A DNA stretch of 64,000 bases, taken from Patescibacteria group bacterium. Its GTDB lineage: Bacteria; Patescibacteriota; Minisyncoccia; Phycocordibacterales; Phycocordibacteraceae. Positions 21,127-63,281 of the stretch are shown piece after piece. The stretch covers positions 158,657 to 222,656 of the forward strand of contig JAUPKX010000007.1 of the NCBI GenBank assembly GCA_030837225.1. The letters are read 5' to 3'. The position numbers and the translations under genes are program-made. The notes under the pieces are model-generated. The model was not told where the DNA came from and ran no database searches. It worked only from the letters and a program-made list of their open reading frames with translations. Every line of letters begins with the position of its first letter. Position 1 is the stretch's first letter.

Positions 21127-21151
21127 GTTCCAACATCGTCCCAGACTGCCA
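21127..21151 (+). repeat. 25-bp motif GTTCCAACATCGTCCCAGACTGCCA (copy a)
   Basis: Identical to copy at 21513-21537; related copies at 50413-50437 and 63257-63281. Confidence 0.8.
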
Positions 21152-21178
21152 GCAATATTTCCATGCTAGATTCATGAT

Positions 21179-21508
21179 ATGGATATTCCCCTGCAATCTA
21201 TACTTCTAATAGTACTAATTGTCGCAGTGCCGCTACTGCTCTCCGGAGCTCTTATATACGGCCATATAAAAGAGGGAAGAATAATGGGTGCCGCCCATTT
21301 CCCATTCCTTCAATCATGGACCAAGTCATTTTGGTATTCGACTGGGATGCCGAAGTATGTGAGTAGAAAACACGAGCCCTTAGAGTTTTGGTTCGGATTC
21401 ATCCTCCGAATGATCCCGCTTATAGGGATGTTGCTGCTACTAATGCTGATGGGCGTTAGTGCAGTACTCGGAGTGACCTTCTACGAACTTATAGATTTGC
21501 TTTTTTAA
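21179..21508 (+). CDS. small membrane protein (109 aa), flanked by 25-bp direct repeats
   Basis: Two to three TM helices (LLIVLIVAVPLLLSGALIYG; IPLIGMLLLLMLMGVSAVLGV). Confidence 0.5.
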   Translation: MDIPLQSILLIVLIVAVPLLLSGALIYGHIKEGRIMGAAHFPFLQSWTKSFWYSTGMPKYVSRKHEPLEFWFGFILRMIPLIGMLLLLMLMGVSAVLGVTFYELIDLLF

Positions 21509-21512
21509 AAAG

Positions 21513-21537
21513 GTTCCAACATCGTCCCAGACTGCCA
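21513..21537 (+). repeat. 25-bp motif GTTCCAACATCGTCCCAGACTGCCA (copy b)
   Basis: Lies in the 30-bp gap between converging stop codons of the small membrane gene and the recombinase gene. Confidence 0.8.
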
Positions 21538-21538
21538 A

Positions 21539-22447
21539 CTATCCTCGCTTCGAATGGAACTTCTTATGCACCTCTCGTAGATGCGAGTCTGTAACGTGAG
21601 TGTAGATCTGCGTCGTATTGATAGATGCGTGGCCAAGGAGCGCCTGAACGGAGCGAATGTCCGCACCATTTGAGAGGAGATCGGTGGCAAACGAGTGTCG
21701 CATAACGTGCGGAGTCACTTTCTTCGTGATGCCGGCCTTCGTGGCATAGGTCTTAATGAGAAGCTCTATGGAGCGGGGAGTAAGGCGGGTAGGGATTCTC
21801 TTCTTGGTCTCAGACTTTCTGGCTGTACTAACGAACAATGCTGGCTCCATATCCGTACGAGCCTTTAGATAGGCTCTCGTAGCGGCCTTGGCAGCGTCTG
21901 AGAGGAATACGACACGCACCTTGTCGCCCTTTCCGCGGATAGGGAAGTCATCACGGGAAAGATCGAGGTCTGAATCAAGCGAACATAGTTCTGAAACACG
22001 AAGTCCCGTAGAGAAGAGCATCTCAAGAATCGCCTTGTCGCGAAGCGCTTTCTCGCTCTCGCCATCCGTTGCTTTGAGAAGGCGGTCGAGCTCGAGCGGG
22101 GAAATAAGGTCCAAGTGACGCTCCGGAACCTTCGCAAGTTCAATCTTCTCGGGAGAAAGCGAGGGAATGTCACGCTTCCGGAGGAACTTGAGGTACGCAC
22201 GGAGCGCGATGAGGTAGTAATTCTGGGTCCGGCGCTTCATCGAGTCCTTATTCGTGCCCGGCTGGCGATTAAGCCAAAGCCTAAACTCACGCACCTTCTC
22301 CTCGGTTATAGCTCCCGTATCCTTAATCTGAGCGTATTCAAAGAATCGAGAGAGGTAATGGTCATAGTTTTCTATGGTCTTTACCGCTCTACCTCGCTCT
22401 ATCTCGAGATACTCAAGGAATTGACGCTTCATCTGTACCGCATCCAT
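21539..22447 (-). CDS. tyrosine site-specific recombinase, XerC/XerD-like
   Basis: N-terminal SAM-like domain (FLEYLEIERGRAVKTIENYDHYLSRF), catalytic HVMRHSFAT and LLGHASINTTQIYTHV (R-H-R-H-Y); track start 22486 is a TTG; ATG at 22447 preferred. Confidence 0.85.
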   Translation of the reverse strand: MDAVQMKRQFLEYLEIERGRAVKTIENYDHYLSRFFEYAQIKDTGAITEEKVREFRLWLNRQPGTNKDSMKRRTQNYYLIALRAYLKFLRKRDIPSLSPEKIELAKVPERHLDLISPLELDRLLKATDGESEKALRDKAILEMLFSTGLRVSELCSLDSDLDLSRDDFPIRGKGDKVRVVFLSDAAKAATRAYLKARTDMEPALFVSTARKSETKKRIPTRLTPRSIELLIKTYATKAGITKKVTPHVMRHSFATDLLSNGADIRSVQALLGHASINTTQIYTHVTDSHLREVHKKFHSKRG

Positions 22448-22521
22448 ACGAAAAGAGTAGCACGCAGGTTCGCACAATATTCTCAAGGTCTCCTTAACGT
22501 AATACGCTATACTTTCTCTAT

Positions 22522-23277
22522 ATGGAACTCTTACTTACACTCCCGATTCTCGTACCGCTTTTTATCGTTGTGCTTGTCGCTGTTATCAAGCAGATAAACC
22601 AGTATGAGCGTGGTGTTCGTTTCACTATGGGTAGGTTCTCCGGAATTATGAACCCTGGGTGGCGCGTAATTATCCCGGTCTTCCAGACATACCAGAAGGT
22701 GGATATGCGCACGAAGGCGGTTGATGTGCCAGATCAGAACGCGATTACACGCGACAACGTGTCAGTACGCGTAAATGCAGTCATATACTACAAGGTTTCT
22801 GACGCTGAGAAGGCGATTATCGAGGTCGAAGACTTCCGATTCGCTATCTCGCAGTATGCGCAGACAACTATGCGCAATATCGTGGGCGAAGTGACGCTCG
22901 ATGAGCTGCTTTCAAGCAGGGATCAGATTGCTGACCGCATCCGGGAGATTGTCGACAAGGAAACTGATGCATGGGGCCTTAAGGTCCAGAATGTAGAGCT
23001 TAAGGACGTTAGTCTGCCTCCTGATATGGAACGCACCATTGGAAAACAGGCAGAAGCTGAGCGTGAGAAGCGTGCCGTCATTATTACATCCGAAGGAGAG
23101 GTCGCAGCGGCACAAAATATGGCTAACGCAGCGCAAATGCTGTCCGCCGTACCTGGTGCGCTACATCTCCGTACCCTCCAATCCATTAACGATATCTCGT
23201 CAGATAAGTCGAATACCGTGGTATTTGCTATCCCGCTAGAGATCTTGAAGGCCCTTGAAGGCTTCAGTAAGCCCTAG
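22522..23277 (+). CDS. SPFH/band-7 (stomatin/prohibitin-like) membrane protein
   Basis: N-terminal TM, SPFH core (VDVPDQNAITRDNVSVRVNAVIYYKV...IVGEVTLDELLSSRD). Confidence 0.85.
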   Translation: MELLLTLPILVPLFIVVLVAVIKQINQYERGVRFTMGRFSGIMNPGWRVIIPVFQTYQKVDMRTKAVDVPDQNAITRDNVSVRVNAVIYYKVSDAEKAIIEVEDFRFAISQYAQTTMRNIVGEVTLDELLSSRDQIADRIREIVDKETDAWGLKVQNVELKDVSLPPDMERTIGKQAEAEREKRAVIITSEGEVAAAQNMANAAQMLSAVPGALHLRTLQSINDISSDKSNTVVFAIPLEILKALEGFSKP

Positions 23278-23331
23278 GGGCACACTAGGAAACACTTGCG
23301 TTTTTAATCAAGGTGTGGTAAGGTGCATGTA

Positions 23332-23598
23332 ATGCTTACGAAACGAGTTAAGACCGCGGTTATTAAGGATATTGCACGCCACCCACAAGATACCGGCTCT
23401 GCCGACGTCCAGGTGGCTATTCTAAGCCGTCAGATTGACGAGCTCACGACCCATCTTAAGAAGAACAAGAAGGATTTCCATTCTCGCCGTGGTCTTCTCC
23501 AGATGGTTGCTGACCGCCGCACCCACCTTCGTTACCTCGAGAAGAACGACAAGCGCCGCTACAGCGCAGTTGTGAAGAAGCTCGGTCTAAAGAAGTAA
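23332..23598 (+). CDS. rpsO: 30S ribosomal protein S15
   Basis: GSADVQVAILSRQIDELTTHLKKNKKDFHSRRGLLQMVADRRTHLRYL; AAGGTG RBS before second Met. Confidence 0.9.
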   Translation: MLTKRVKTAVIKDIARHPQDTGSADVQVAILSRQIDELTTHLKKNKKDFHSRRGLLQMVADRRTHLRYLEKNDKRRYSAVVKKLGLKK

Positions 23599-23599
23599 G

Positions 23600-23630
23600 A
23601 AACCGCGGGCAGAGGCCCGCGTTTCTCGTT
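23600..23630 (+). terminator. intrinsic terminator after rpsO
   Basis: AACCGCGGGC-agag-GCCCGCGTT then TCTCGTT. Confidence 0.55.
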
Positions 23631-23698
23631 CTAAGCAGGTGCTAGAATATAGATAGGCTCCTCTGAGCCCCATTACACCGTTTTAATACTGAACCGTT

Positions 23699-24211
23699 AT
23701 GCCTGTTATCAAGCATCCGGCGCAACGAGTAGGAGTTTTCATCGACACGCAGAACCTCTACCACAGCGCTAAGCATCTTTATAAGTCCCGCGTTAACTTC
23801 GCCAAGGTCCTCGAAGAGGCCGTGGGGGACCGCATTCTTGTTCGCGCCATCGCCTACGTTATTTCTACCGAAGGTGGCGACGAGAGTGCCTTCTTCGATG
23901 CTCTCACCAAGATCGGCATCGAAACAAAGGTGAAAGGTCTCCAGATCTTCTCAGACGGCGCAAAGAAAGCCGACTGGGACGTAGGTCTCGCCATAGACGC
24001 CGTTAAACTAGCTCCCAAGCTCGACACTGTTATTATCGCGAGCGGGGACGGGGATTTCGTGCCTCTTATTGAATACTTGGACATGAACCAAGGCTGCCAG
24101 GTGGAAGTTATCTCCTTCGGGAAATCTTCCTCGCAGAAACTTAAGGAAGCCGCACACGCGTTTACCGACATGTGTGAGGATCCAAAGAAGTTCATCATCG
24201 GACATCGTTAG
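23699..24211 (+). CDS. NYN domain (LabA-like, PIN-related) protein
   Basis: RVGVFIDTQNLYHSA ... VIIASGDGDFVPLIEYL motifs typical of NYN/DUF88. Confidence 0.65.
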   Translation: MPVIKHPAQRVGVFIDTQNLYHSAKHLYKSRVNFAKVLEEAVGDRILVRAIAYVISTEGGDESAFFDALTKIGIETKVKGLQIFSDGAKKADWDVGLAIDAVKLAPKLDTVIIASGDGDFVPLIEYLDMNQGCQVEVISFGKSSSQKLKEAAHAFTDMCEDPKKFIIGHR

Positions 24212-24315
24212 AGATGTGATTCAGATAGAGAGGCCGCGACAGTGTGTCGCGGTCTTTTCTATACACGCATGCACCTCTTCATAGAGCAGGGGGCAGGTAT
24301 AATTGAAACAACACC

Positions 24316-25911
24316 ATGCCACCACTCAACGACCCAAAGAAGGACCCTGCGACAACTCCCACTCCTGCACAAACTGCGGCCAACATAACTGTCGCGCCCG
24401 AGGATCGTTCAAAATATATCCGTACCATGGCCAAAGACATGGCCACGCTTTCCGGAAACCCTCCCGTTCATGCACCAACAAAGAAGCTGCCCGCGAAGGA
24501 AGAGACTGTTGCGGGCGTCACCCTAAAGACTGAAGAGCGTCCGTTCTTTGAGAAGCCGCAATCGAGAGAAGAGCGCGAGGCAGATGTGCCAATCGCACTC
24601 CCGTCCATGCAGGAAGCGAGCACCGTAGTAGAAGCAGCACCGAATCCAGTTGAAGTGCGCGCAGCAGAGCGTGCCGCCGTACTCGAGCGCCTTCGCCAGA
24701 AAGTTGGGGAGAGCGCACAGATGTCCATCCAAGATTCTCCTGCGCCCGAAGTACCAAGCCCTGCACAGGTTCCAGCAGAGAAGTCGTGGCCAGATATTCC
24801 CGTACCTGATTTTTCAGTACCCGAGACGCCGAAATCTGAGTGGGCTAACATTCCTGCTCCTGCTCCGCAGTTTGCGCCGCTCGCAGAACCCGTGCCGTCG
24901 AGACTTCCTCCTGTTGGGAAGGAGTCGTATCGTGAACCTATTGAATCAAGCGAGCCTGGGCGTCCACTTGCTCCCGCTGGTCCTGACGTAATGCATACCT
25001 ATTCGAGTGATTTCTCGAACCGGATCGACACCAAGAGTGCGTCCACGTTCTCCGTGCTTGCTGCTGAACAGGACTCTCAGACAAAGACCGCCGCAGTACT
25101 ATCTACACCAAAGAAGAGCCCCGTTAAGGCAATCGTTGCTGTTGGTACAGGCATCCTGCTTCTCGCACTCGCAGGTGGCGGTATCTTCGCTACGTATCAG
25201 TTCGTTATGACCATGCGCGACACACCAATCGCATCGCTTACTGTTCCCTCAATTGTATTTGCTGACGAGTACCGTGAACTCTCGGGCACCGGAAACGAGC
25301 TGATGAGTGCTTTCAAGTCCGCGGCAAACGGCGCACTCGTGCCGGGCAACGTTCTCGTTACCTATATCCTTACCGATTCGAACGGGGAAGACGGCTCTGT
25401 GCTTCGAGGTCCTGCGGGCGGCGCTGCCTTTGTTCGTGCGCTTCAGGTTCCTGCACCTGACATACTCCTTCGAAATATCGCAGAAGAGAGCACGACTGGT
25501 GTAGTGAACGCGGAAGGGAACACAACACCGTTCTTCGCACTTCGTGTCGATTCGTATGAGCGCACCTATGCGGGCATCCTTACCTGGGAACCACTCATGC
25601 ATCGGGACCTCGGACTTCTGTACCCACTCTATGCAGTTGAAAACGCGCCAGCTATAGAAGAGACGATTGCAACAACAACTGCTACTTCAACCATCGCAAC
25701 AACAACGAAGGCAGCTCCCGTGTCCTCAATTGAAGCGTCTGCCCGCACCCGATTTGAAGACGCAATTGTCGCGAACCATGATGTGCGTATCCTTAGAGAC
25801 ACTGAAGGACGTTCTCTTATTCTCTATGGATACGCAGACAAGCGTACGCTCCTTATTGTCCGTGACGAGGCTTCCTTTGAGGCTCTCCTTGCACGCCTGA
25901 AGGCTGAATAG
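24316..25911 (+). CDS. Pro-rich hypothetical membrane-anchored protein
   Basis: Low-complexity P/A/E N-terminal half, TM helix AIVAVGTGILLLALAGGGIFATY; TATAAT at 24298-24303 only about 12 nt before ATG. Confidence 0.5.
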   Translation: MPPLNDPKKDPATTPTPAQTAANITVAPEDRSKYIRTMAKDMATLSGNPPVHAPTKKLPAKEETVAGVTLKTEERPFFEKPQSREEREADVPIALPSMQEASTVVEAAPNPVEVRAAERAAVLERLRQKVGESAQMSIQDSPAPEVPSPAQVPAEKSWPDIPVPDFSVPETPKSEWANIPAPAPQFAPLAEPVPSRLPPVGKESYREPIESSEPGRPLAPAGPDVMHTYSSDFSNRIDTKSASTFSVLAAEQDSQTKTAAVLSTPKKSPVKAIVAVGTGILLLALAGGGIFATYQFVMTMRDTPIASLTVPSIVFADEYRELSGTGNELMSAFKSAANGALVPGNVLVTYILTDSNGEDGSVLRGPAGGAAFVRALQVPAPDILLRNIAEESTTGVVNAEGNTTPFFALRVDSYERTYAGILTWEPLMHRDLGLLYPLYAVENAPAIEETIATTTATSTIATTTKAAPVSSIEASARTRFEDAIVANHDVRILRDTEGRSLILYGYADKRTLLIVRDEASFEALLARLKAE

Positions 25912-25940
25912 GGTAGGGGTTTCGTGGTACAGTAGCGGCC

Positions 25941-26294
25941 ATGAACATAGAACAATTCCGCACACGCTTAACCGAAGAGAAGACAGCACTCGAAGCAGAG
26001 CTCGCTACCGTTGGCCGCAAGAACCCAAGCAACCCAAATGACTGGGAGGCAACGCCTGAGGAGACTGGTCTTGAGGCTGATCCAAATGATCGCGCAGACC
26101 AGATGGAGGAATTCGGCAACAATGCCGCTATCCTTACCGACCTCGAGCGTCGCTATAACGATGTAATCGCAGCAATCGCTAGAATCGAGGACGGTATGTA
26201 CGGCACGTGTATCGCAGGGGACGAGACCATCGAAGAAGATCGTCTCGAGGCAGATCCTGCTGCCGCAACATGCAAGACACACATGAACGGCTAA
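25941..26294 (+). CDS. DksA/TraR-family (YteA-like) zinc-finger protein
   Basis: Coiled-coil N-terminus and C-terminal GTCIAGDETIEEDRLEADPAAATC motif. Confidence 0.55.
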   Translation: MNIEQFRTRLTEEKTALEAELATVGRKNPSNPNDWEATPEETGLEADPNDRADQMEEFGNNAAILTDLERRYNDVIAAIARIEDGMYGTCIAGDETIEEDRLEADPAAATCKTHMNG

Positions 26295-26296
26295 CT

Positions 26297-26956: not shown

Positions 26957-26972
26957 GGACACTGTAAAGAGA

Positions 26973-27003
26973 AAAGCCCCGGACCAGTCCGGGGCTTTTC
27001 TCC
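26973..27003 (+). terminator. intrinsic terminator (AAAAGCCCCGGACCAGTCCGGGGCTTTTCTCC)
   Basis: Near-identical to terminator at 27765-27795. Confidence 0.6.
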
Positions 27004-27020
27004 ATTTCGGGCAGCGATGC

Positions 27021-29101: not shown

Positions 29102-32100
29102 ATGCAGCACCTCGAAGGCCTTAACGACGCGCAACGGGAAGCCGTCCTAGCCACCGAGGGTCCGGTCTCAGTCCTCGCGGGTGCCGGATCGGGCAAAACA
29201 CGGGTTCTAACCACCCGCATCTACCATCTTATAAAGGAAGGGGTGCCCGCTAACCGGATTCTCGCCGTTACCTTCACCAACAAGGCCGCCCGAGAGATGA
29301 GAGAGCGCCTCGCGCACAGACTCGGGGATAGTCCGCTCCCGTTTGTAGCTACGTTCCATGGCCTTGGCCGGGATATTCTCCAGCGATACGGCAGTCGCAT
29401 TGGTATCTCTCGTTATTTCACGATATTTGATCGCGATGACTCGAAATCCGCCATAAAGAGGGTATTGAAGGAGATGGATATCGACCCAAAGGAGATGAAT
29501 CCAAACTTTGTCCTTTCCCGCATCTCGAAAGAAAAGGGAGAAGGCTCCACTCCCGATGCTTTCCGTGAGAAGTACGCACAGAAGAGCTTCCAGTCCCGTG
29601 TTATCGCTGAAGTCTGGCCCAAGTACGAAGCAATACTCAAGAAGGAGAAGGCGCTCGACTTCGACGATCTTATTTGTCTTCCGGTGCGCTTGCTTCGCGA
29701 GCACGAGGACATCCGTAGGGAAGCGGAGCAGCTCTACAGCCACGTACACGTGGACGAGTTCCAAGACACCAACGAACTGCAGGGCAAGCTCGTCGACATG
29801 CTCACACAACCACAGAACAATGTGTTCGTGGTAGGGGATATTGACCAGTGTCTTCTTGCCGGAACAGAAGTGCGCATGGCAGATGGTTCGAAAAAATCTA
29901 TCGAACTAATTCAAGAAGGGGATTCTGTTCTGTCTAATTTTGGAAGTGGGGATATGCGGGCCGCAAGCGTTATAAGAGCCATGAAGCGAGAGTTCTCTGG
30001 AGACTTGGTTCACATCATCACTATGTCTGGACGCACCCTTACAAGCACGCCGGAGCATATTCACTTTGCCGGATACCGACTAGGTGTCGTACCCCAGAAA
30101 TACTTTACCTACCTGATGTACAAAAAGGGGAAAGGGTGGCGTCTTGGCGTCTCGCAGACCTATACCAACGGCCAGCGCGCGCCCATGATCGGATTTCAGC
30201 AGCGATGCAACCAAGAGCACGGGGACAGTGTGTGGATTGTTGGCGTATTTGACTCGGCACAGGAAGCACGCGTGCACGAGTACAAACTCTCGTTAACGTA
30301 TGGCATTCCAACGCTCCCTTTCGTAGCGCGAAAGGGAAGCGTAGGCGGGTATATCCATGACCAGGAAACGCTTGATGCGGTATTCGCATCATTCGATACT
30401 GATGCCGCCGCAAGAAAACTCTTATCAGACCGTGGACTCTCTCTTTCCTATCCCCATCATCGTGCTCAAGCAACGCGCAGCAACAGAAGGAATATTCTTA
30501 TCACACTATGTGGGGACCACAGGGGTAGCACACCCATGCATCGCATATCGATTGTTGGGAGCGATGATATAGGAAAAGAGGCACTGGTAGCGGCAGGATT
30601 TTCAGTACGTTCAGCAGGGTTAGGTTCGATGAGTTGGAGATTTGAGACCGCCCATGCCGATTACGGCAAGGCGAGAGAAATCTCTGATCGACTCCTCATA
30701 ATATTTCCAGATGCTCAGGTCGTAGAAACCGCGCGTCTCGGAGGAAAGAAAACAAACCCTAAGGATTCGAACTCATTGCCATTTCTTCCCGCTGCCTCGG
30801 TGCTGCCAGGTATGGCCATGTTCGACGACGAAGCTGGATGGGATATCGTCGAGTCTGTAGAACGTGTTCCTGGGAACAAGATACCCGTCTATGACTTAAA
30901 CATTGAAGGGACACATAACTTCATTGCAAACGGTCTTTCAACACACAATTGTATCTACACCTGGCGAGGCGCTACAATCGAGAACCTGCTCAAGTTCGAA
31001 GAGCAGTACGAGAACGCAAAGACCATCGTGCTCGCGCATAACTATCGTTCAACAAAAACAATTGTTGCTGCAGGAAACCAGATAATCGAGAAGAATCAGA
31101 ACCGCAAGGATAAGCATGCAGTAACCGACAACGCGGATGGGGAACCGATACGCTTACACATTGCGCGCAACGCAGAAAGCGAAGCTCGATGGGTGGCGCG
31201 TGAAGCGAGGAAAGCTATACGGGAAGGCGTTTTACCTGAAGAAGTTGCCGTACTGTTCCGTACGAACTTCCAGTCTCGTGCTCTTGAGGAAGCGTTCCTC
31301 TCAGAAGGCCTCCCATACAAGGTGCTCGGTACGCGCTTCCTTGATCGCAAAGAAGTGAAGGACGTACTCGCATGGGTCAGACTTGCACTTGATCCAGAAC
31401 GCGAAGTGGACCGCATCCGCGCCGTACAGGCACCAACGCGCGGAATAGGGAAAGTGACCCTCGGCAAGCTTATCGACGGAAAGAGGGACACTTTGAAGCC
31501 TGCAGAAGTGAAGAAGGTAGCGGCATTCGAAGCTATCGTTATGGAACTGAACGAACTCGCAAAGATTGCGGTGCCGAGCGAATTCGTAAAGCTCGTCATT
31601 GAGCGCTCAGGATTAGCCGAAGCGCTGCGTAAGGGCGGGGAAGAGGACGCCGAGCGCCTTGAGAACGCGAAGGAGCTCGCAACCTTAGCCAGCCGCTATG
31701 ACGGCATGCCAGGAGAGGAGGGAATTGCAGCATTTCTGGCGGAGTCCGCCTTAGCTGGCGACCAAGACGAGCTCGACGCACCAGGCACTGCCGGCATTAC
31801 CCTTATGACCGTACACGCAGCCAAGGGACTTGAGTTCGATACCGTATTTGTTACCGGCATGGAGCAGGGATTGTTCCCGCACGAAGCGAGAGAGGGGGAG
31901 AAGCGGGACGAGGAAGAGGAGCGCCGCTTGTTCTATGTAGCGGTTACGCGCGCAAAGCGCAGGCTTAATCTCACGCTCGCAACCGTTCGTCGCATCTATG
32001 GCACCGACTTCGCCTCGGAACCTTCCATGTTCATCCGCGACATAGACGAGGGGCTTATCAGTTTCTCAGAAGGGGACGAGCTCTATGGAGAGCGTACGAT

Positions 32101-32110
32101 ATACATCTAG
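29102..32110 (+). CDS. uvrD: UvrD/PcrA-family DNA helicase interrupted by an intein in motif III
   Basis: Walker A AGSGKTRVLT, DEFQDT, then VVGDIDQ | intein | CIYTWRGA, downstream helicase motifs IV-VI. Confidence 0.9.
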   Translation: MQHLEGLNDAQREAVLATEGPVSVLAGAGSGKTRVLTTRIYHLIKEGVPANRILAVTFTNKAAREMRERLAHRLGDSPLPFVATFHGLGRDILQRYGSRIGISRYFTIFDRDDSKSAIKRVLKEMDIDPKEMNPNFVLSRISKEKGEGSTPDAFREKYAQKSFQSRVIAEVWPKYEAILKKEKALDFDDLICLPVRLLREHEDIRREAEQLYSHVHVDEFQDTNELQGKLVDMLTQPQNNVFVVGDIDQCLLAGTEVRMADGSKKSIELIQEGDSVLSNFGSGDMRAASVIRAMKREFSGDLVHIITMSGRTLTSTPEHIHFAGYRLGVVPQKYFTYLMYKKGKGWRLGVSQTYTNGQRAPMIGFQQRCNQEHGDSVWIVGVFDSAQEARVHEYKLSLTYGIPTLPFVARKGSVGGYIHDQETLDAVFASFDTDAAARKLLSDRGLSLSYPHHRAQATRSNRRNILITLCGDHRGSTPMHRISIVGSDDIGKEALVAAGFSVRSAGLGSMSWRFETAHADYGKAREISDRLLIIFPDAQVVETARLGGKKTNPKDSNSLPFLPAASVLPGMAMFDDEAGWDIVESVERVPGNKIPVYDLNIEGTHNFIANGLSTHNCIYTWRGATIENLLKFEEQYENAKTIVLAHNYRSTKTIVAAGNQIIEKNQNRKDKHAVTDNADGEPIRLHIARNAESEARWVAREARKAIREGVLPEEVAVLFRTNFQSRALEEAFLSEGLPYKVLGTRFLDRKEVKDVLAWVRLALDPEREVDRIRAVQAPTRGIGKVTLGKLIDGKRDTLKPAEVKKVAAFEAIVMELNELAKIAVPSEFVKLVIERSGLAEALRKGGEEDAERLENAKELATLASRYDGMPGEEGIAAFLAESALAGDQDELDAPGTAGITLMTVHAAKGLEFDTVFVTGMEQGLFPHEAREGEKRDEEEERRLFYVAVTRAKRRLNLTLATVRRIYGTDFASEPSMFIRDIDEGLISFSEGDELYGERTIYI
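29849..30949 (+). mobile_element. intein (367 aa) within uvrD
   Basis: Starts Cys (CLLAGTEVRMADG), block B GRTLTSTPEH, C-terminal VYDLNIEGTHNFIANGLSTHN followed by +1 Cys; flanking extein halves re-form helicase motif III. Confidence 0.8.
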
Positions 32111-48585: not shown

Positions 48586-49686
48586 ATGATTATTACTTTA
48601 GATAAAAAAGAATTCTCAGAAGGAGTGCAGAGCGTTGCACGCTTCGCAGAGAAGAGAAGCGGCACGCTTCCGGTACTCGCGGGTATCGCAATCATCGCGG
48701 GAGACGATGGCATCAAGCTTCGTGCTACGAATCTCGAGACTGGTGTCGACCTTAAGATCGAAGGCACTATAAAGAGCGATGGCGTTGTGGCGCTCCCGGC
48801 AGCAACCCTTCGCGATATTGCATCCTCGCTTTCTGGAAGTGGCACATTAACGCTCGAGCATTCGGGTGACACGGTCCTTGTATCAACCGGAAACGGCCGC
48901 TCAACGCTCAAGACCCTCGCGTTCGAGGATTTCCCTACACTTCCTCTCCCTGAGTCCCCACGGGCGAAATTCGAGCTTCCAGGAAGTCTCCTTAAGGCAC
49001 TTGTTATGTCGGTTGTGTCGTATGCATCCACGTCTACTGTTCGTCCTGAACTCGCGTCTGTCCTTATTGCAGGAGAAGGAAGCGCCCTTAAGGCGGTTGC
49101 CACAGATTCTTTCCGTCTTGCAGAGAAGAAAGTATCGCTTTCAAGCTCCATTGCAGCGTTCTCGATGCTTATTCCTGCAAAGAATGCGATTGATATCATG
49201 CAGACATTGCCTGACGAGACTATTGAAATCGCGGTAGACGAGCACCAGTGCGCGTTCTACTGGAAGAAGGGTGTCCTTACGACTCGTCTCGTTACCGCTA
49301 ACTATCCGGACTACACCCAGATTATCCCAAAGTCCTTTGTCTCTGAGGCAACCGTCCTTAAGAAGGACTTCGAGGCGGCACTCAAGCGTACTGCTATCTT
49401 CTCGGACACCTTCCAGAAGGTGCGTCTTGGGTTTGATGCAGGATCAAAAGCAGTTGCACTCTCGGCACAGAATGCAGATGTAGGGGATTCAGCTGAATCT
49501 ATTCCTGCTGCTATCTCAGGAGATGCGGTTGAGCTCTCCTTCAACCATCGGTATCTTTCAGCGCCAATCTCAACCATTGCTGCAGAGAGTATTTCTTTGT
49601 CTGCAAGCGGTATTGGTAGAGCAATGGTTATGCGAGGTTCAGGGGACACTTCGTTCTTGTATCTCGTGATGCCGATGAATCAGTAG
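48586..49686 (+). CDS. dnaN: DNA polymerase III beta sliding clamp
   Basis: Three-domain beta-clamp, 366 aa, immediately after dnaA. Confidence 0.9.
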   Translation: MIITLDKKEFSEGVQSVARFAEKRSGTLPVLAGIAIIAGDDGIKLRATNLETGVDLKIEGTIKSDGVVALPAATLRDIASSLSGSGTLTLEHSGDTVLVSTGNGRSTLKTLAFEDFPTLPLPESPRAKFELPGSLLKALVMSVVSYASTSTVRPELASVLIAGEGSALKAVATDSFRLAEKKVSLSSSIAAFSMLIPAKNAIDIMQTLPDETIEIAVDEHQCAFYWKKGVLTTRLVTANYPDYTQIIPKSFVSEATVLKKDFEAALKRTAIFSDTFQKVRLGFDAGSKAVALSAQNADVGDSAESIPAAISGDAVELSFNHRYLSAPISTIAAESISLSASGIGRAMVMRGSGDTSFLYLVMPMNQ

Positions 49687-49746
49687 GTTTGATCTCCAGA
49701 CCCCAGCAATTGATATTTGGTACTTGTTCTCTTTTACCAAGCAACC

Positions 49747-50379
49747 CTACTTTATTACTTCAAGCTGGCAAGTCTTTTCATCGCAATAAATTACTTCGCC
49801 ACGTACACTGATAGCACTGAAAACAAACGTACCGTCACTTGTATCGCTGTCACCTTTTGTACTGAGACGCCACCCTTTAGGAAACCCATCTTGGGTAAAG
49901 TTCTCTTGATCATCGTGCAGTGGGTAGTACCAGGAACCTGTAGGGGCAGAGGCGCACATACTACCAGGATTTGGATTGTACTGTTGAGTAGGATACTGCA
50001 AGTTGTACCCAGCTAATACGCACTGCAAAGCGATTTCGCGCCTTGATTCCATGAACTCAAGTACAGTTGATGCAGGAAGTACTTCTCTCTCGGGTACGAG
50101 TCCTCCCCAACGAGTAACTACACCAATGAATGAGACAGCAAATAGTACTAGTAAAATTGAAAGAAGAGTCCAACGCTTTTGAAAGAAAAGTGCGAGGAGT
50201 GCTATAAGTGCAAACGCAAGAAGAACTACACCGATCAAAAGCCTCATTGGTTGGAAGTCATCTCCAATACCAATATTGAGGGTGAGAGGATCAAGAATAA
50301 AGCTCAGACCGCCAATGAAGACCGCAACAAAAATTGGAACAGCGACCATCACTATATGTCTATGATTTGTTGGGTCCAT
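49747..50379 (-). CDS. membrane protein, hypothetical (AT-richer island)
   Basis: Four TM helices then extracellular Cys-containing domain. Confidence 0.45.
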   Translation of the reverse strand: MDPTNHRHIVMVAVPIFVAVFIGGLSFILDPLTLNIGIGDDFQPMRLLIGVVLLAFALIALLALFFQKRWTLLSILLVLFAVSFIGVVTRWGGLVPEREVLPASTVLEFMESRREIALQCVLAGYNLQYPTQQYNPNPGSMCASAPTGSWYYPLHDDQENFTQDGFPKGWRLSTKGDSDTSDGTFVFSAISVRGEVIYCDEKTCQLEVIK

Positions 50380-50412
50380 GAAAGTTTAGATTGCTTCCAA
50401 TTTATCATGCTG

Positions 50413-50437
50413 GTGCCAACATCGTCGCAGACTGCCT
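50413..50437 (+). repeat. 25-bp motif variant GTGCCAACATCGTCGCAGACTGCCT (copy c)
   Basis: 22/25 identical to copies a/b; 56 nt upstream of 50494 gene. Confidence 0.7.
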
Positions 50438-50493: not shown

Positions 50494-50856
50494 ATGAATA
50501 CATCACCATCAGAGACAGGTAAGCGGCCCGTAATCATCAGCATAATATGTGTAGTCGGATTCCTGGGCGGCATCCTCTCCCTCGCAGGAATTATAATTCC
50601 TGCTTCCCGAGCAATGCTTGTAGAAAGCTACGGAATGTCATTTGTGATTCTAACTGCCGTGCTAACCATCCTGACGTTTGCGAGTCTCATCGGATTCTGG
50701 AAGATGAAGAAATGGGGACTCTACACATATATCGTGGCCACTGTTCTCGGAATGGTCGGAGGCCTGTACCTAGGATTACCATTCAACGTTCTTAGTTACA
50801 TAGTCCCCACAGCGATAGTTGTTACTGGTCTCTTTTATTTCAAGCGTTTCAGGTAG
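50494..50856 (+). CDS. small four-TM membrane protein, hypothetical
   Basis: Hydrophobic helices throughout. Confidence 0.5.
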   Translation: MNTSPSETGKRPVIISIICVVGFLGGILSLAGIIIPASRAMLVESYGMSFVILTAVLTILTFASLIGFWKMKKWGLYTYIVATVLGMVGGLYLGLPFNVLSYIVPTAIVVTGLFYFKRFR

Positions 50857-54454: not shown

Positions 54455-54479
54455 ATTATTGTTGTCCCAGACCGTCACA
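54455..54479 (+). repeat. weak, partial copy of the 25-bp motif (core GTCCCAGAC)
   Basis: About 12/21 identities to consensus; upstream of 54513 gene. Confidence 0.3.
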
Positions 54480-59134: not shown

Positions 59135-59160
59135 AATACCGCGCCCTGGAGCGCGTTCCT

Positions 59161-59625
59161 ATGCTGCTTGGTACAATTAGGGACATGAGACCAGCCCGTA
59201 CGATACAGGACCTCCAAGACCTTGAAGCGGAGGCTCGAGAGTTTGTGTCTGCACTCCAACCAAAACAAGACAGTGCGACGTTCGTTACGCTCTCAGGGAA
59301 CCTTGGGGCCGGGAAGACGGCGTTTACGCAAGCCGTTGCGCGAACGCTCGGTGTCCTCGAGCCCGTTACGAGTCCCACCTTTGTACTTGCGAAGTCATAC
59401 GACCTTTCTGGAAAAGAGTTTTCTAAACTCGTGCACATCGATGCGTACCGTCTTACGAAAGGGAAGGAGCTTCGTGCGCTCGATTTCACACATACGCTTG
59501 AAGATCCTCGAACACTCGTGATACTTGAGTGGCCAGAGATGGTAGAGGACGGGCTTCCACACGCTGACGTCGCCATAACTCTCACAGTGCGCTCAGACAC
59601 CGAACGCGACATAGCCTATGCCTAA
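59161..59625 (+). CDS. tsaE: tRNA threonylcarbamoyladenosine biosynthesis protein TsaE
   Basis: P-loop GNLGAGKT and SPTF motifs. Confidence 0.75.
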   Translation: MLLGTIRDMRPARTIQDLQDLEAEAREFVSALQPKQDSATFVTLSGNLGAGKTAFTQAVARTLGVLEPVTSPTFVLAKSYDLSGKEFSKLVHIDAYRLTKGKELRALDFTHTLEDPRTLVILEWPEMVEDGLPHADVAITLTVRSDTERDIAYA

Positions 59626-61999
59626 GAACCCGAACACAACTCGGCTCGTTCTTCTCGACGCACATGCGATTATCCATCGCGCGTATCATGCGCTCCCTGA
59701 CTTTACGGCGCCCGACGGACAACCAACCGGTGCGCTCTACGGGCTGTCTTCGATGTTGCTTCGGATCGCAACAGATCTAAAGCCTGACTACATTGTTGCG
59801 TGCTACGACTTGGCTGGCCCAACTGTTCGCCACGAGGCATACGCGGAATACAAAGGTACGCGCTCTGCGATAGATGACTCACTCATTGCGCAACTCAATT
59901 CGTCTCGCAATGTGTTCAAGGCATTCTCAGTGCCGATCTACGAGAAGCAGGGATTCGAAGCGGACGATATCCTCGGCACCATCGTTGAGAAATTGAAGGA
60001 CGACCCGTCAATCGAAATCATCATCGCCTCGGGCGACATGGATACCATGCAGCTGATAACAGGAAAGAAGGTGCAGGTTTACACCCTTAAGAAAGGTTTG
60101 AACGACACCATCCTTTACGATGAGAAGGCGGTAGAAGAGCGCTACGGATTCCTGCCTGCACTCATCGCTGATTACAAAGGCCTTCGGGGCGATCCCTCGG
60201 ACAACATCAAGGGCGTGCCCGGCATCGGCGAGAAGACGGGAACCGAACTCATACAGAAGTTCGGCTCTGTTGAGGATATCTACAAGGCGATTAAGAAAGA
60301 CGAAGCCGCAGTACTCGCAGCCGGCATCAAGCCACGCATCGTGAACCTCCTTAAGGAGCACGAGGAGGATGCGCTCTTCTCGAAATCCCTCGCAACAATT
60401 CGTCTTGATGCACCAATAACGTTTGCGATGCCTGCAAAAGTTTGGAAGGAGACTATCGCGACTGAAAAACTACTCGCTCTTTTTGATGAGCTTGGGTTCC
60501 GTTCCCTCAAGCCGCGCGTTAGGTCGCTCCTTGGAGGAGAGGACGACACCGAAGACGAGGAGGTACGTGAAGAAGCTGCAGAAGAAAACATCCCGCTCGA
60601 TCGGCTGCAAGAAGCGAAGGTAATGCTTTGGCTTTTGTATTCTGATTTTACAAACCCAACTCTCGACGACATACTCGCGTACACCAAAGCAAAAGATTTC
60701 GATGAGGCATACACAGCACTTGAGAAGGGACTTGCTGAGACCGGACGCTTGAGGGAGCTCTACGACACCATCGAGAAACCGCTCGTGCCGATCTTAGAGG
60801 AAATGAAGCAGTGCGGCGTGCGTATTGATACGAACGTGCTTGAGACACTGCGAAAAACATATCGCAAAGAGCTCGAGACTATAGAAGCGCGCGTGTACAA
60901 GGCAGCCGGGCACGAATTCAACATAAGCTCGCCGAAGCAGCTGGGAGACGTTTTGTTCGACGAGATGGAACTAACCGCAAAAGGGCAGAAGAAGACCGCT
61001 ACGGGCCAGCGCTCAACCAAGGAATCGGAACTTGAGAAGATAAAAGATTTGCATCCGATTGTTTCAGACGTGCTCGAGTTCCGTGGGCTCCTGAAGCTCC
61101 TCTCTACCTATATAGAAGCGCTGCCGCCGCTACTCGATGAAGGCAGTCGTCTCCATGCGGAGTTCTTGCAGACGGGTACCGTTACGGGGCGCATGGCGAG
61201 CCAGAACCCGAATCTGCAGAACATACCGATACGTACCGATCGTGGACGCGCGATTAGAAACGCATTTATTCCCCGCGACGGCTATACGCTCGTTGGTATC
61301 GACTATTCGCAGGTGGAATTGCGCATTGCAGCGATTCTCTCAAGGGACGAGAAGCTTGAAGCAATATTCAAGAGTGGGCGTGATGTGCACACCGAGGTAG
61401 CTGCCGCTGTGTTCAAGGTTCCGGCAGAAAGTGTGGATCGCGAGATGCGTCGCCGTGCGAAGATCATCAACTTTGGCATCCTCTACGGCATGGGCGTGAA
61501 TGCACTGAAGACGCAGCTCGGCACGTCGCTTGCTGAAGCCCATACGTTCTATGACGACTACTTTGCAACGTTCGATACGCTCGCGAAGTATCTTGAATCG
61601 ACTCGTGGTTACGCGCGCAAGCATGGGTACACCGAGACGTTGTTCGGAAGAAGGCGCCAGTTCCCAGAAATGAAGTCGTCGTTGCCGTACGTACGAGCAC
61701 AAGCGGAGCGTATGGCAATTAACGCGCCCATTCAAGGCACCCAAGCAGACCTCATAAAGCGGGCCATGGTTGAGGTTGATAGGGTGCTCAGGGAGAGCGG
61801 AGACCGCGAGGACGCACACCTTTTGCTTCAGGTACATGACGAACTCGTGTATGAGGTGCGTGCTGAACGCGCACAGGAACTCGGTAATCGCATTAAGGAT
61901 GTGATGGAGCAGGCGTTTCCTATGGAGCTCACAAACGGCGTACCGATACTCGCTGACGCGAAGCAGGGAGCGAACTGGGGCGACATGCAACCACTATGA
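59618..61999 (+). CDS. polA: DNA polymerase I (5'-3' exonuclease + polymerase domains)
   Basis: FEN-like N-terminus, polymerase motifs A (DYSQVELR), B (RRRAKIINFGILYG), C (LQVHDEL). Confidence 0.95.
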   Translation: MPKNPNTTRLVLLDAHAIIHRAYHALPDFTAPDGQPTGALYGLSSMLLRIATDLKPDYIVACYDLAGPTVRHEAYAEYKGTRSAIDDSLIAQLNSSRNVFKAFSVPIYEKQGFEADDILGTIVEKLKDDPSIEIIIASGDMDTMQLITGKKVQVYTLKKGLNDTILYDEKAVEERYGFLPALIADYKGLRGDPSDNIKGVPGIGEKTGTELIQKFGSVEDIYKAIKKDEAAVLAAGIKPRIVNLLKEHEEDALFSKSLATIRLDAPITFAMPAKVWKETIATEKLLALFDELGFRSLKPRVRSLLGGEDDTEDEEVREEAAEENIPLDRLQEAKVMLWLLYSDFTNPTLDDILAYTKAKDFDEAYTALEKGLAETGRLRELYDTIEKPLVPILEEMKQCGVRIDTNVLETLRKTYRKELETIEARVYKAAGHEFNISSPKQLGDVLFDEMELTAKGQKKTATGQRSTKESELEKIKDLHPIVSDVLEFRGLLKLLSTYIEALPPLLDEGSRLHAEFLQTGTVTGRMASQNPNLQNIPIRTDRGRAIRNAFIPRDGYTLVGIDYSQVELRIAAILSRDEKLEAIFKSGRDVHTEVAAAVFKVPAESVDREMRRRAKIINFGILYGMGVNALKTQLGTSLAEAHTFYDDYFATFDTLAKYLESTRGYARKHGYTETLFGRRRQFPEMKSSLPYVRAQAERMAINAPIQGTQADLIKRAMVEVDRVLRESGDREDAHLLLQVHDELVYEVRAERAQELGNRIKDVMEQAFPMELTNGVPILADAKQGANWGDMQPL

Positions 62000-62646
62000 T
62001 TTATCTCTTCCACGGAACTGATACCGGAAAGACGCGTGCCAAGGCGTTTGCGTGGATTGCAGCGGTACGAGCAAAAGCACCAGAGGCCGCGTACATCAGG
62101 CTCCAAGGAAGCCAGATAACGGAGGAAGCACTTCGCGATGCTATTAGCGCGCAGGGACTCTTCTTCGCGAAGTCTTTGATACTCCTTGATGACCCATTTT
62201 CCGACGAGAGTGCCGGAGAGATCATGCTCTCAATGCTTGATCTTCTGGCTGCGTCCGAGAATCCAGTAGGTATACTCGCACCAAAGCTTCTCGCAGCTCG
62301 TGCAAAGAAACTTGAAGCGGTTGCAACAAAAGTTTTTAAAGAAGATGCAGTACCGAAGCGCGATAGGGGATTCAATAGTGCGCTTGTGAACGCGCTTGGC
62401 TCTAAAGACGGGAAAACGTTGTGGAAGGAGCTTGTGAAAGCGGAACGTCTGGGCGACGTACCGGAAATAACGCACGGACTTTTGCACTGGAAGGCACGCG
62501 ACATGATGCAAAAGGGAAATACAAAATGGGGGAAAGAAGGCGCACGTGAGTTATCCGTCTCGCTTATAGAGCTCCTGTCCGATGCGCGATCGGGGGACCT
62601 TCCGCTCGGTCCATCGCTTGAGCGCTTCGCGCTCTCTTTACGATAA
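61996..62646 (+). CDS. holA: DNA polymerase III delta subunit-like protein (short)
   Basis: N-terminus MIYLFHGTDT typical of HolA; start overlaps polA stop (ATGA); only 216 aa. Confidence 0.5.
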   Translation: MIYLFHGTDTGKTRAKAFAWIAAVRAKAPEAAYIRLQGSQITEEALRDAISAQGLFFAKSLILLDDPFSDESAGEIMLSMLDLLAASENPVGILAPKLLAARAKKLEAVATKVFKEDAVPKRDRGFNSALVNALGSKDGKTLWKELVKAERLGDVPEITHGLLHWKARDMMQKGNTKWGKEGARELSVSLIELLSDARSGDLPLGPSLERFALSLR

Positions 62647-62693
62647 GTTAGACTCCCACCCGCCCGGCAATATTTTGAGGCTATAATAGCCTC

Positions 62694-63254
62694 ATGGAAT
62701 ACCGAGAGATTGAAGTTAGATTTCTTAACATAGATAAAGAAGCTTTGGTCCAGAAGCTAGAGAAGGTGGGTGCTGAGGACCTAGAAGAAAGTCTTCTCGA
62801 TGAACGAATCATTTATGATGAAGCATTTACGTGGCGCGATGGAATCCACAAGATACTTCGTCTACGCACCGTGGATGGAAAAACTCATCTAACATACAAG
62901 CACCGAACAGAAATAACTGCGACAGGCACTGAGGAGATTGAGTTTGAGGTTGGGAATATAGACGCTGCAGAGGCCCTACTTCAAAGACTTGGTTATGTTG
63001 CTTTCAGGCACCAACAGAAACTTCGCCATACGTTCCGTCTTGGAGAGGTTCTCGTTGAAATTGATACCTGGCCAAGAGTCCCTGCATACGTAGAACTCGA
63101 AGGTCCTAGCGAAGAAGCGCTAAAGGAGACAGCAAAAGCACTCGAGCTCGACTGGAATACAGTGGAGATGAGGAGTCCCAGAACAGTTATTGAGGAGGTA
63201 TATAACATTCCAGTAGGCCAGATGCGCTGGTTTACGTTTGATAGGTTTGAATAA
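62694..63254 (+). CDS. CYTH-domain protein (triphosphate tunnel metalloenzyme)
   Basis: EIEVRFL (ExExK-type) N-terminal motif and beta-barrel-consistent pattern. Confidence 0.75.
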   Translation: MEYREIEVRFLNIDKEALVQKLEKVGAEDLEESLLDERIIYDEAFTWRDGIHKILRLRTVDGKTHLTYKHRTEITATGTEEIEFEVGNIDAAEALLQRLGYVAFRHQQKLRHTFRLGEVLVEIDTWPRVPAYVELEGPSEEALKETAKALELDWNTVEMRSPRTVIEEVYNIPVGQMRWFTFDRFE

Positions 63255-63256
63255 AG

Positions 63257-63281
63257 GTTCCAACATCGTCCCAGACATCCA
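63257..63281 (+). repeat. 25-bp motif GTTCCAACATCGTCCCAGACATCCA (copy e)
   Basis: First 20 nt identical to copies a/b; 45 nt upstream of tRNA-Lys. Confidence 0.75.

Follow-up and report, generated by a model that had tools for sequence, protein, structure and literature searches.

Dif and pdif sites are 28 bp long and contain two inverted 11-bp arms, and in pdif modules the orientation of the sites alternates; in dif/Xer sites the arms of ~11 bp enclose a 6-8-bp spacer, and each replicon contains one such site near its terminus. The elements of the staphylococcal cassette chromosome (SCC) span many kb and depend on island-encoded ccr serine recombinases. The tycheposons of Prochlorococcus are kb-scale elements and were described as containing their own tyrosine recombinase and replication genes together with partial tRNA repeats of about 40 nucleotides (nt) (bioRxiv 10.1101/2020.12.28.424599). 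Here, a short directly oriented repeat was studied in a 64,000-nt stretch of DNA (the window) of a Patescibacteria group bacterium (assembly GCA_030837225.1, contig JAUPKX010000007.1, positions 158,657-222,656 of the forward strand). The repeat is read as the conserved core of an attachment site bounding mobile single-gene cassettes in Paceibacteria/Parcubacteria chromosomes, with an estimated probability of about 0.65. In the best reading, the site serves the insertion, loss and exchange of cassettes by an enzyme unlinked to the arrays of sites and cassettes. Coordinates are positions in the window, and L-numbers (e.g. L005) are labels of the other loci and contigs compared.

An earlier note on this stretch had claimed four strong copies of a 25-bp repeat, all on the plus strand, and these were borne out by a 25-mer search allowing up to three mismatches, which found 0 matches in 100 dinucleotide-preserving shuffles. 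The copies at 21127-21151 and 21513-21537 were found to be identical, the copy at 50413-50437 contained three mismatches and the copy at 63257-63281 contained two, its first 20 nt being identical. The degenerate fifth copy claimed at 54455-54479 was not upheld; the profile covered just 14 nt of it (E = 7) and its gapped local alignment fell within the shuffled background. The gene contexts given for the copies were correct: copy 1 lies 27 nt 5′ of the open reading frame (ORF) beginning at 21179, copy 2 between the stop of this ORF and the stop of a minus-strand recombinase gene, copy 3 56 nt 5′ of ORF 50494, and copy 4 44 nt 5′ of tRNA-Lys. That the repeat precedes plus-strand genes was true as far as it went, but the site comes after stop codons just as well, and one unit in three lies on the opposite strand. 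The note had also argued against a core promoter; core, extracytoplasmic function (ECF)-type and sigma-54 promoter readings were indeed dropped because the spacing to -10 elements varies and the site also divides opposite-strand genes. Three short-form (S) relatives, absent from the earlier note, were found to open the arrays of the window at 20821-20842, 49686-49707 and 62647-62668. The S form at 49686-49707 is not significant by score alone, and it is position and orthology, rather than score alone, that suggest this site and the one at 62647-62668. No further decayed copies in the window rose above background in regex and gapped-alignment scans. The count of four copies per 64 kb is that of the window.

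The conserved unit was found to exceed 25 bp and to extend from -8 to +28 (A.AAAgGTTCCAACATCGTCCCAGAC.GCCAGCaa), with nothing conserved beyond. This L form is a strand-specific site of 28-36 nt, aaaGGTTCCAACATCGTCCCAGAC-n-GCCAGCaa, and the Patescibacteria instances contained A.AAAgG-TTCCAACATCGTCCCAGAC-n-GCCAGC-aa. An exact scan with CCAACATCGTCNCAGAC, in which each species was represented by one genome, matched at least 116 loci. About 60 of these were Patescibacteria metagenome-assembled genomes (MAGs), labelled as Parcubacteria/Paceibacterota, Kaiser-, Nomura-, Wolfe- and Berkelbacteria with some Saccharibacteria; the collection counts given below (61 loci etc.) rest on the matches listed. 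A profile built from 92 instances detected at least 138 significant copies in 61 other loci from many Patescibacteria MAGs, and the core variants CCCACAC, CATTGTC and CAACGTCG. Two or more copies were present in 35 of the 61 loci, none of which mixed strands, and no reverse-strand copy of the motif was found in the arrays. Copies were mostly ~300-900 bp apart, and their spacing had a median of 555 nt (interquartile range 438-718, range 181-3546). The guanine-plus-cytosine (GC) content of the site-bearing genomes ranged from 0.30 to 0.58. In the Xer-centred locus L180 a copy in inverted orientation was found 4.5 kb away, beyond the xer gene.

The remaining listed matches were single hits in unrelated bacteria, including a recurring high-GC alphaproteobacterial sequence with conserved flanks. 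The 19-mer TTCCAACATCGTCCCAGAC was found in this unrelated high-GC family at L006, L007, L025, L034, L044, L045, L047, L067, L084, L086, L105, L115 and most of L117-L149 (alphaproteobacterial genomes and IMG/VR viral contigs). In IMG/VR the 19-mer had 34 matches, 33 of which came from the high-GC (0.60-0.70) family with conserved flanks as in the alphaproteobacterial genomes, and the 34th (L150, GC 0.52) was also found to be without the CCAGC extension. The 19-mer of this family is a coincidence of sequence and would contaminate naive motif searches.

Among the 26 arrays of other genomes with a visible start, 25 were found to open with the final 23 nt of tRNA-Gln. This S form (consensus GGTTCGATCCCTAGTCTCCCAGC) covers the T-loop, the T-stem and the 3′ strand of the acceptor, ends in ...CCAGC, and was part of an intact tRNA-Gln in 18 arrays and an orphan 23-mer in seven. 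ARAGORN found 28 tRNA genes in 60 loci, and 18 were tRNA-Gln (UUG or CUG); all 18 were located 5′ of the array and co-oriented with it, with no site before them and with the first L form 377-2274 nt on. No rRNA was present in any locus, and a possible resemblance of the reverse complement of the site to the 5′ ends of 23S rRNA and tmRNA was given up in favour of the tRNA-Gln relationship. The sequence past the ...CCAGC of the tRNA was found to be of the same kind as that past the ...CCAGC of the repeat, namely a -10 element with a leaderless ATG, or a minus-strand terminator. L002 and L101 were collinear over 4.26 kb (77% identity), and this collinearity ended with the final base of the tRNA, beyond which nothing was shared. 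The orphan S forms were always found on the site strand, upstream of all L forms and never within an array; in L016, L035, L056 and L014 they begin abruptly at GGTTC, immediately behind a stop codon or another tRNA. The orphan of L016 directly followed the stop codon of YceG and that of L014 stood 6 nt after tRNA-Pro, and in both cases the intact tRNA-Gln in that genome has the identical end. The S form fits the pattern of the tRNA-Gln 3′ 23-mer and was identical to it in several loci.

Aligned end to end, the L form and the 3′ 23-mer of tRNA-Gln contained 19 identities in 23 positions with two gaps, and 0 of 20,000 shuffles scored as well. The L form has the layout GGTTC-CAACATCG-TCCCAGAC-nG-CCAGC, 5 nt longer than the tRNA end, and by this alignment appears to be a diverged derivative of the tRNA-Gln end. 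The best match of the L form among the tRNA species tested was tRNA-Gln in most cases, with scores overlapping those of one other tRNA. The right arm of the L form (AC-nn-CCAGC) matched the acceptor strand of the tRNA-Gln of its own locus at 5.96 of 9 positions vs 5.45 for other loci (permutation p = 0.0008), as with CCCCGAGC in L114 and CCAAC in L039.

Two further tRNA arrangements were observed. In L020 (original 3865-3936, minus strand) the array follows tRNA-Met (CAU), the 3′ end of which (GGTTCGATTCCGGGCCCCGCAAC) ends in ...CAAC; tRNA-Gln may therefore not be the sole anchor. In L005 (original ~6290-6593, a region with an N run) and in L082 (7040-7195) the intact tRNA-Gln was followed by a conserved 29-nt spacer (ACAGCACATTTCACTCrCTCrCTTG...) and a second tRNA copy from the D-arm to the 3′ end (53 nt), the acceptor strand of which differs in L082. 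This duplication looks like the scar of a different integration event using a longer tRNA segment.

Single-gene units of 0.2-1.3 kb were found between the sites, and this architecture and the boundaries of the cassettes were observed directly. The longest ORF per interval (n = 96) was on the site strand in 60 intervals and on the opposite strand in 32, and four contained none. The 89 cassette ORFs were mutually unrelated (mean column identity 5%) and included methyltransferases, HAD, NUDIX, GNAT, RidA, cupin, alpha/beta-hydrolase, DAGK, PspC and HD families; most had no Pfam match and none was a recombinase. The matched families are typical of accessory genes. No cassette of at least 120 nt was common to different loci of the collection in an all-against-all BLASTN comparison.

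In the same-strand units the stop codon was located -8 to +4 nt from the A-rich 5′ edge of the site in 34 of 60, and hairpin terminators were not present. An extended -10 element (TGnTAnnnT) was found to begin 4-13 nt after CCAGC, followed by 5-8 nt and an ATG. The combination of a -10 hexamer, 5-8 nt and an ATG, opening an ORF within 45 nt after CCAGC, was present at 37 of 170 copies vs 1 at control positions, and because the ATG stands 5-8 nt after the -10 element the mRNAs of the same-strand cassettes are taken to be leaderless. The opposite-strand units contained an intrinsic terminator at the 3′ side of one site and a promoter beside or overlapping the next site. A conserved 30-nt module was found at 18 copies, where TTGGAA, in the reverse complement of the site, serves as the -35-like hexamer for a TGnTAGGTT -10 element.

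The 30-nt module (TCTrGACAGAACnnTAnCAtAnnTTGCAtAA) is present directly 5′ of the site, before unrelated minus-strand genes, and reads as a portable promoter composed of TTGGAA, an 18-nt spacer and TGnTAGGTT. It was found, among the 18 L-form copies, at L005, L014, L016, L027, L054, L070, L073, L078, L080, L085, L091, L101 and L106. The module is partly inverted-similar to the site (TCTGGAC/GTCCCAGA, GAACC/GGTTC) and may belong to an extended recombination site. A -10 element followed by a short gap and an ATG, with no Shine-Dalgarno sequence, was also found in core genes, namely SPFH (TATACT followed by 8 nt) and probably ExoIII. Such starts, with 6-8 nt from the -10 element to the gene start, are exemplified by window positions 22487-22524, 62680-62696 and 21164-21181 and by many related loci, and leaderless mRNAs therefore seem to be common beyond the cassettes. 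Many opposite-strand cassettes were instead found to contain GGAGG leaders.

The presence/absence polymorphism between strains that had been proposed as a check was found, with three different cassettes left of copy 1. L152 and L252 were 99-100% identical to the window on both sides and differed only within 20842-21127, where cassette A of the window (Table 1) was missing from these two near-identical strains and replaced by protein-coding cassettes. L152 contained a 401-nt same-strand cassette encoding a YunG-like protein of 125 amino acids (aa), with a canonical -10/leaderless start and a stop running into aaaGG, and L252 contained a minus-strand cassette of 107 aa behind a truncated site. 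The window and L152 were 99% identical as far as 20842 and diverged thereafter; the left breakpoint was immediately after ...CTGCCAGC (the ...CCAGC end) and the right breakpoint at GTTCCAAC (GTTCC). Logan contigs L151 and L153 were found to end exactly at copy 1. The YunG family itself is not tied to the system, since its homologs in four other genomes (57-64% identity) were not flanked by the site.

Besides this replacement, the same cassette was observed in two arrays. Shared cassettes were located via closer relatives fetched through protein look-ups, and cassette B matched L249/L250 at 84% nucleotide identity over 419 nt, from site to site (window 21123-21541). In L249 its homolog comes third in a tRNA-Gln-anchored array, and its neighbours there differ. 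One cassette end in L252 had a match in L102. L005, whose SPFH protein is 86% identical to that of the window, contained seven significant copies and one weak copy where the window has two. The junction between the Xer-like gene and ExoIII in 35 relatives was 17-35 nt long and siteless in 10, including the closest (L169). L178 had a solo S-like site there, and the remaining relatives had inserts of 160-3362 nt; the other inserts contained no comparable junction repeats. This junction is a general insertion hotspot (gaps 17-3362 nt, 35 relatives). In L199 the last 38 nt of the xer coding sequence (4400-4437) were duplicated at 5832-5869, 1432 nt downstream, with 97% identity, which points to the integration of another element into the xer 3′ end in that genome.

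From these observations we infer exchange by site-specific recombination, with a crossover position and an enzyme class that are set out here as a proposal. An array opens with an S form, in an intact tRNA-Gln or as an orphan, and each cassette is closed by an L form. A circular or incoming cassette with one L form would recombine with the S form or with another L form, the crossover being placed close to the variable dinucleotide and to CCAGC, the right arm common to both sites, so that the S form would be regenerated at the tRNA and a new L form, carrying the right arm of the host, would be left behind the cassette. Repeated rounds of integration would give rise to same-strand, directly oriented arrays, whereas recombination between two sites would delete or swap a cassette, and solo sites (e.g. 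L178) would be the scars. The enzyme would act in trans, and a tyrosine recombinase would be the first candidate by analogy with other tRNA-targeting elements. The arrangement is read as a tRNA-anchored array of att-bounded cassettes, with a substantial probability of being a distinct capture system that has an enzyme of its own. It is proposed only tentatively that Paceibacteria contain their own gene-cassette capture platform, an integron analog but mechanistically distinct, with landing at the tRNA-Gln 3′ end, unstructured 28-nt pseudo-tRNA sites on promoter-bearing cassettes, a trans recombinase, possibly of a new specificity class, by which cassettes would be inserted, excised and shuffled, and seeding of new arrays by orphan S forms. 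No description of the motif, of cassette arrays in the candidate phyla radiation (CPR)/Patescibacteria or of tRNA-Gln islands was found in the full-text literature searched, the coverage of which is incomplete.

Several findings weigh against this interpretation, the first group of which concerns the enzyme. No tyrosine recombinase was found by tblastn and phmmer within the 8-kb blocks (~4 kb) of the 61 arrays. No recombinase was present among the recurrent Pfam families of 143 flanking ORFs, which were housekeeping families (clamp loader, Dus, M23 and M10 peptidases, HI0933-like flavoprotein), and no serine recombinase was present among these recurrent families. The Xer-like gene of the window is located at the distal end of array 1 with its 3′ end facing the array, and its orthologs (62-89% identity) were found in 80 metagenome loci; just 2 of the 74 loci with enough flank contained the site within ~4 kb. 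As the linked enzyme this adjacent gene was rejected, with no homolog near the 61 arrays and 72 of 74 ortholog loci lacking the site; it is a conserved core gene without a general link to the site. Neither a circular intermediate nor a phage or plasmid with the site was found: INPHARED phages and PLSDB plasmids contained only chance matches of 17-23 nt, and no CPR phage attP was present among the IMG/VR matches.

The second group concerns the site. No dyad symmetry could be read in the consensus, and no single-strand structure was found (minimum free energy of single-stranded DNA 0 kcal/mol for the site strand and -0.3 kcal/mol for the complement, z positive for both); an asymmetric, unstructured site is unusual for the core sites of tyrosine or serine recombinases. 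The perfect conservation of the 17-nt core in the collection loci is in part an ascertainment artefact, since these loci were retrieved with that very pattern. The covariation between the right arm and the tRNA is modest and could have its source in shared ancestry. Simple attP x attB integration would not place orphan S forms at non-tRNA loci, and these forms need an extra step, namely relocation, loss of a duplicated tRNA-Gln, or a transposition-like or other mechanism. The empty slots in close relatives contained no pre-existing site and also need such an additional explanation.

The main rival explanation, considered unlikely, is that the site acts as portable homology, by which RecA would swap, delete or insert cassettes at the 28-nt site after natural transformation without a dedicated enzyme, and the islands would spread by homologous recombination in the flanking core genes. 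It accords with a recombinase being linked to none of the arrays and with the asymmetric, unstructured site, and flank-driven exchange could explain the strain replacements because the conserved flanks are 99-100% identical. Patescibacteria commonly encode competence machinery, and such spread is likened to the 'minimal mobile elements' of Neisseria. The ~27-bp core is near the minimal length for RecA pairing, whereas double crossovers in 27-bp segments are very inefficient. However, cassette B moved between unrelated loci sharing just the two sites, and the left arm is constant even where the DNA of the core genes is only ~65-77% identical from genome to genome; portable homology alone does not explain this constancy. 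The opening of arrays by tRNA-Gln, with the S form always first and the L form never first, is also left unexplained by portable homology.

A transposon-like or rolling-circle (HUH-type) capture, in which the S and L forms would be the initiation and termination signals for single-strand transfer, is improbable. It would account for orphan S forms at new loci, and it fits their abrupt start at GGTTC immediately behind a stop codon or another tRNA, two end types that differ and are directly oriented rather than inverted, as well as the empty slots of relatives without a pre-existing target. No HUH, Rep or transposase was found, however, among the recurrent Pfam families of the cassette and flanking ORFs, and there are no subterminal hairpins. 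The strong preference for a genuine tRNA-Gln 3′ end (18 loci) is moreover the behaviour of a classical integrase.

Very little probability is given to a regulatory or punctuation element (a silencer operator, an insulator or a factor-dependent terminator). The site does lie between transcription units, the stops of same-strand cassettes without hairpin terminators abut it, and 18 copies supply the TTGGAA hexamer to a TGnTAGGTT promoter, but its distance and orientation to promoters vary, it has no structure, and in L016 consecutive opposite-strand genes are still divided by a same-strand site. The tRNA-Gln anchor, the polymorphism breakpoints and the homology of whole cassette units would be left unexplained. 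Among the roles suggested in the earlier note, the operator was thus set aside (variable distance and orientation to promoters, division of consecutive opposite-strand genes), whereas a recombination site or cassette boundary was retained on the same-strand single-gene arrays, the strain-level replacement at the site, cassette B bounded motif-to-motif elsewhere and the tRNA-Gln anchor.

A DNA uptake sequence for natural competence is hardly credible: the motif is conserved across genomes and intergenic, but known uptake sequences are spread over the core genome on both strands, at about one per kb and in hundreds to thousands of copies, whereas the window contains four copies in 64 kb, on one strand and at cassette junctions only, and each of the 61 loci contains them on one strand. 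An attC-like or terminator-like hairpin was rejected (minimum free energy 0), as were CRISPR (clustered regularly interspaced short palindromic repeats; repeats of 23-47 nt with non-coding spacers of about 21-72 nt and cas genes; here the spacing is 181-3546 nt with a median of 555, the intervals hold ORFs with promoters, and no cas family was among the recurrent families of the cassette and flanking ORFs) and membership of a known repeat, whether a repetitive extragenic palindrome (REP)/bacterial interspersed mosaic element (BIME) or a miniature inverted-repeat transposable element (MITE). The last had been named as a possible refutation and did not hold, there being no hairpin and no inverted copies in a motif common to many genomes with GC content 0.30-0.58, whereas such elements are palindromic or have terminal inverted repeats, stand in both orientations and are species-specific.

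The features of the three arrays in the window are collected in Table 1. The window is a Patescibacteria-type chromosome with proteins up to 80-86% identical to those of Parcubacteria MAGs, and copies 1 and 2 are surrounded by genes for a CCA-adding enzyme, ExoIII, an XerC/D-like recombinase, an SPFH protein, S15 and an NYN protein.

Table 1. Sites, cassettes and adjoining recombinase gene in the three arrays of the window
Feature	Position	Strand	Description
S-form site opening array 1	20821..20842	+	GTTCGATCCCTACTCTGCCAGC; orphan tRNA-Gln 3′-end fragment
Cassette A	20843..21126	-	Self-contained 284-nt unit, polymorphic between strains
L-form site, copy 1	21127..21153	+	GTTCCAACATCGTCCCAGACTGCCAGC; profile E = 3e-11
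Cassette B	21154..21511	+	ORF 21179-21508, 109 aa, small membrane protein
L-form site, copy 2	21512..21539	+	GGTTCCAACATCGTCCCAGACTGCCAAC; E = 2.5e-11; closes array 1
XerC/D-like tyrosine recombinase gene	21539..22486	-	Pfam Phage_integrase and SAM-like N domain; context only
Probable decayed S-form site opening array 2	49686..49707	+	GGTTTGATCTCCAGACCCCAGC; aligned with other S forms; positional support
Array 2 cassette	49747..50379	-	210-aa ORF, no Pfam match
L-form site, copy 3	50412..50436	+	GGTGCCAACATCGTCGCAGACTGCC; E = 1e-5; diverged, right arm decayed
Decayed S-form site opening array 3	62647..62668	+	GTTAGACTCCCACCCGCCCGGC; directly after TAA stop of ORF 61996-62646
CYTH-domain cassette	62669..63255	+	ORF 62694-63254; Pfam CYTH
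L-form site, copy 4	63256..63283	+	GGTTCCAACATCGTCCCAGACATCCAGC; E = 9e-11; closes array 3

The S form of array 1 was found to be identical at 20 of 22 positions to the tRNA-Gln 3′ end of related genomes, with no tRNA body before it (ARAGORN) and with the start codon of ExoIII 22 nt to its left. Cassette A contained, as read from sequence, a promoter (TTGACA-N16-TGcTACTGT) near 21085-21115 and a strong intrinsic terminator near 20850-20885 (stem 20857-20885, then a T-run), and no ORF longer than 40 aa was present in the ORF list. Its transcript region (20848-21078, minus strand) gave a predicted RNA fold of -83.6 kcal/mol (z = -1.8), and the cassette looks like a small non-coding transcript. 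Only five tRNAs reached the Rfam gathering threshold in the window, and nothing relevant was found at E <= 10 in 20700-21700. Cassette B contained an extended -10 element TGcTAGATT (21164-21172) followed by 6 nt and the ATG at 21179, for which reason its mRNA is taken to be leaderless. Public gene calls also use an internal start that gives 74 aa, the protein had no Pfam match, and the stop was located 3-4 nt short of the next site. The last base of copy 2 overlaps the stop codon of the recombinase gene.

The first G of the S form of array 2 is shared with the TAG stop of ORF 48586-49686, and the promoter of the array 2 cassette (TGaTAAATT) abuts the reverse complement of copy 3. ORF 50494-50856, after copy 3, was followed by a bidirectional terminator only, with no further site. 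The S form of array 3 has its ortholog in L009, where an intact S form, GGTTCGATCCCTAGTCTGCCAGC, stands before the CYTH gene, and the flank common to both downstream contained CAATATT...CTATAaT...TCATG. The CYTH cassette contained a -10 element TATAAT (62682-62687) followed by 6 nt and the ATG at 62694, its stop reaches into the A-rich 5′ edge of copy 4, and L009 shares this arrangement of gene and site with 66-70% identity (tblastx). Copy 4 was followed by tRNA-Lys (63326-63398), and the same arrangement was found in five strain contigs. Within 1-2 nt of this tRNA-Lys (UUU; window 63326-64000) begins an ORF with a weak LAGLIDADG_3 match, which is called as 255 or 277 aa in the strain contigs; free-standing LAGLIDADG genes were also found beside small-gene clusters in L165 and L166.

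Other features of the window lie outside the arrays. Gene orientation switches at ~22-26 kb, being mostly minus at the left and almost all plus at 22.5-45.7 kb. Cumulative GC skew is lowest at 24-26 kb and climbs from there to the end of the window, and array 1 is found immediately to the left of the switch. The orientation switch together with the skew minimum would be the pattern expected at a replication origin. The UvrD-type helicase of 1002 aa at 29102-32110 may contain an intein, as a weak Intein_splicing Pfam match is present in the annotation of the identical L151 gene. A 406-aa ORF at 14000-15220 (minus strand) contained internal repeats with units ~129-135 and 264 nt apart (repeat families D2-D5).

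Patescibacteria make up a large share of bacterial diversity and have genomes of ~1 Mb; most are uncultured, and classical mobile elements are thought to be scarce in them. Together, a conserved 28-nt junction site and a tRNA-Gln landing pad would give a testable mechanism of strain-level gene flux. The site would also serve as a sequence handle by which the flexible genes of these organisms could be retrieved from metagenomes. If the recombinase were found, a natural site-specific integration tool would be available for a group that is only just genetically tractable. If true, the interpretation would amount to a second, independent solution to the 'integron problem', with a tRNA-derived linear site in place of the folded attC.

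The arrays resemble integrons in several respects. Both contain mostly single-ORF cassettes of a few hundred bp with diverse accessory or unknown cargo, each ending in a recombination site, and in both a distinct first site (the S form here, attI in integrons) is followed by sites in one orientation. A minority of reversed cassettes with their own promoters is likewise common to both, and integrase-less arrays (clusters of attC sites lacking integrases, CALINs) exist. The attC sites, however, are imperfect palindromes that form hairpins as single strands and are conserved in structure, whereas the site here is linear, 28 nt long and conserved in sequence, without the R″/L″/L′/R′ palindrome and without a hairpin. 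The cassettes contain their own promoters, mostly an extended -10 element with a leaderless start, vs the common promoter Pc of integrons, and the anchor is a tRNA-Gln gene with no IntI-type integrase by the first site.

With the dif modules, including the integrative mobile elements exploiting Xer (IMEX), the arrays share small gene modules, short sites and the lack of an element-encoded recombinase, and an Xer-like gene abuts the array of the window. Unlike the dif and pdif sites, the site here is asymmetric and always direct, and the Xer ortholog was siteless in 72 of 74 loci; several sites are present per 64 kb, and the arrays are not located at a terminus-like skew maximum. The SCC elements at orfX/rlmH show a comparable tandem accretion at the 3′ end of a conserved gene with short direct repeats, and some elements are without a recombinase, whereas the units here are single genes with no serine recombinase nearby. 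The tycheposons are similar as hypervariable islands that grow from the 3′ part of one specific tRNA gene (bioRxiv 10.1101/2020.12.28.424599), in which successive integrations push older units inward and partial tRNA repeats are found between the cargo, and their hosts are likewise streamlined with few classical mobile elements. The units described here differ from tycheposons in being single genes without an integrase, bounded by a repeat that appears to be a derived tRNA end with the same core in many genomes, and in having arrays that orphan 23-nt tRNA ends seed at non-tRNA loci.

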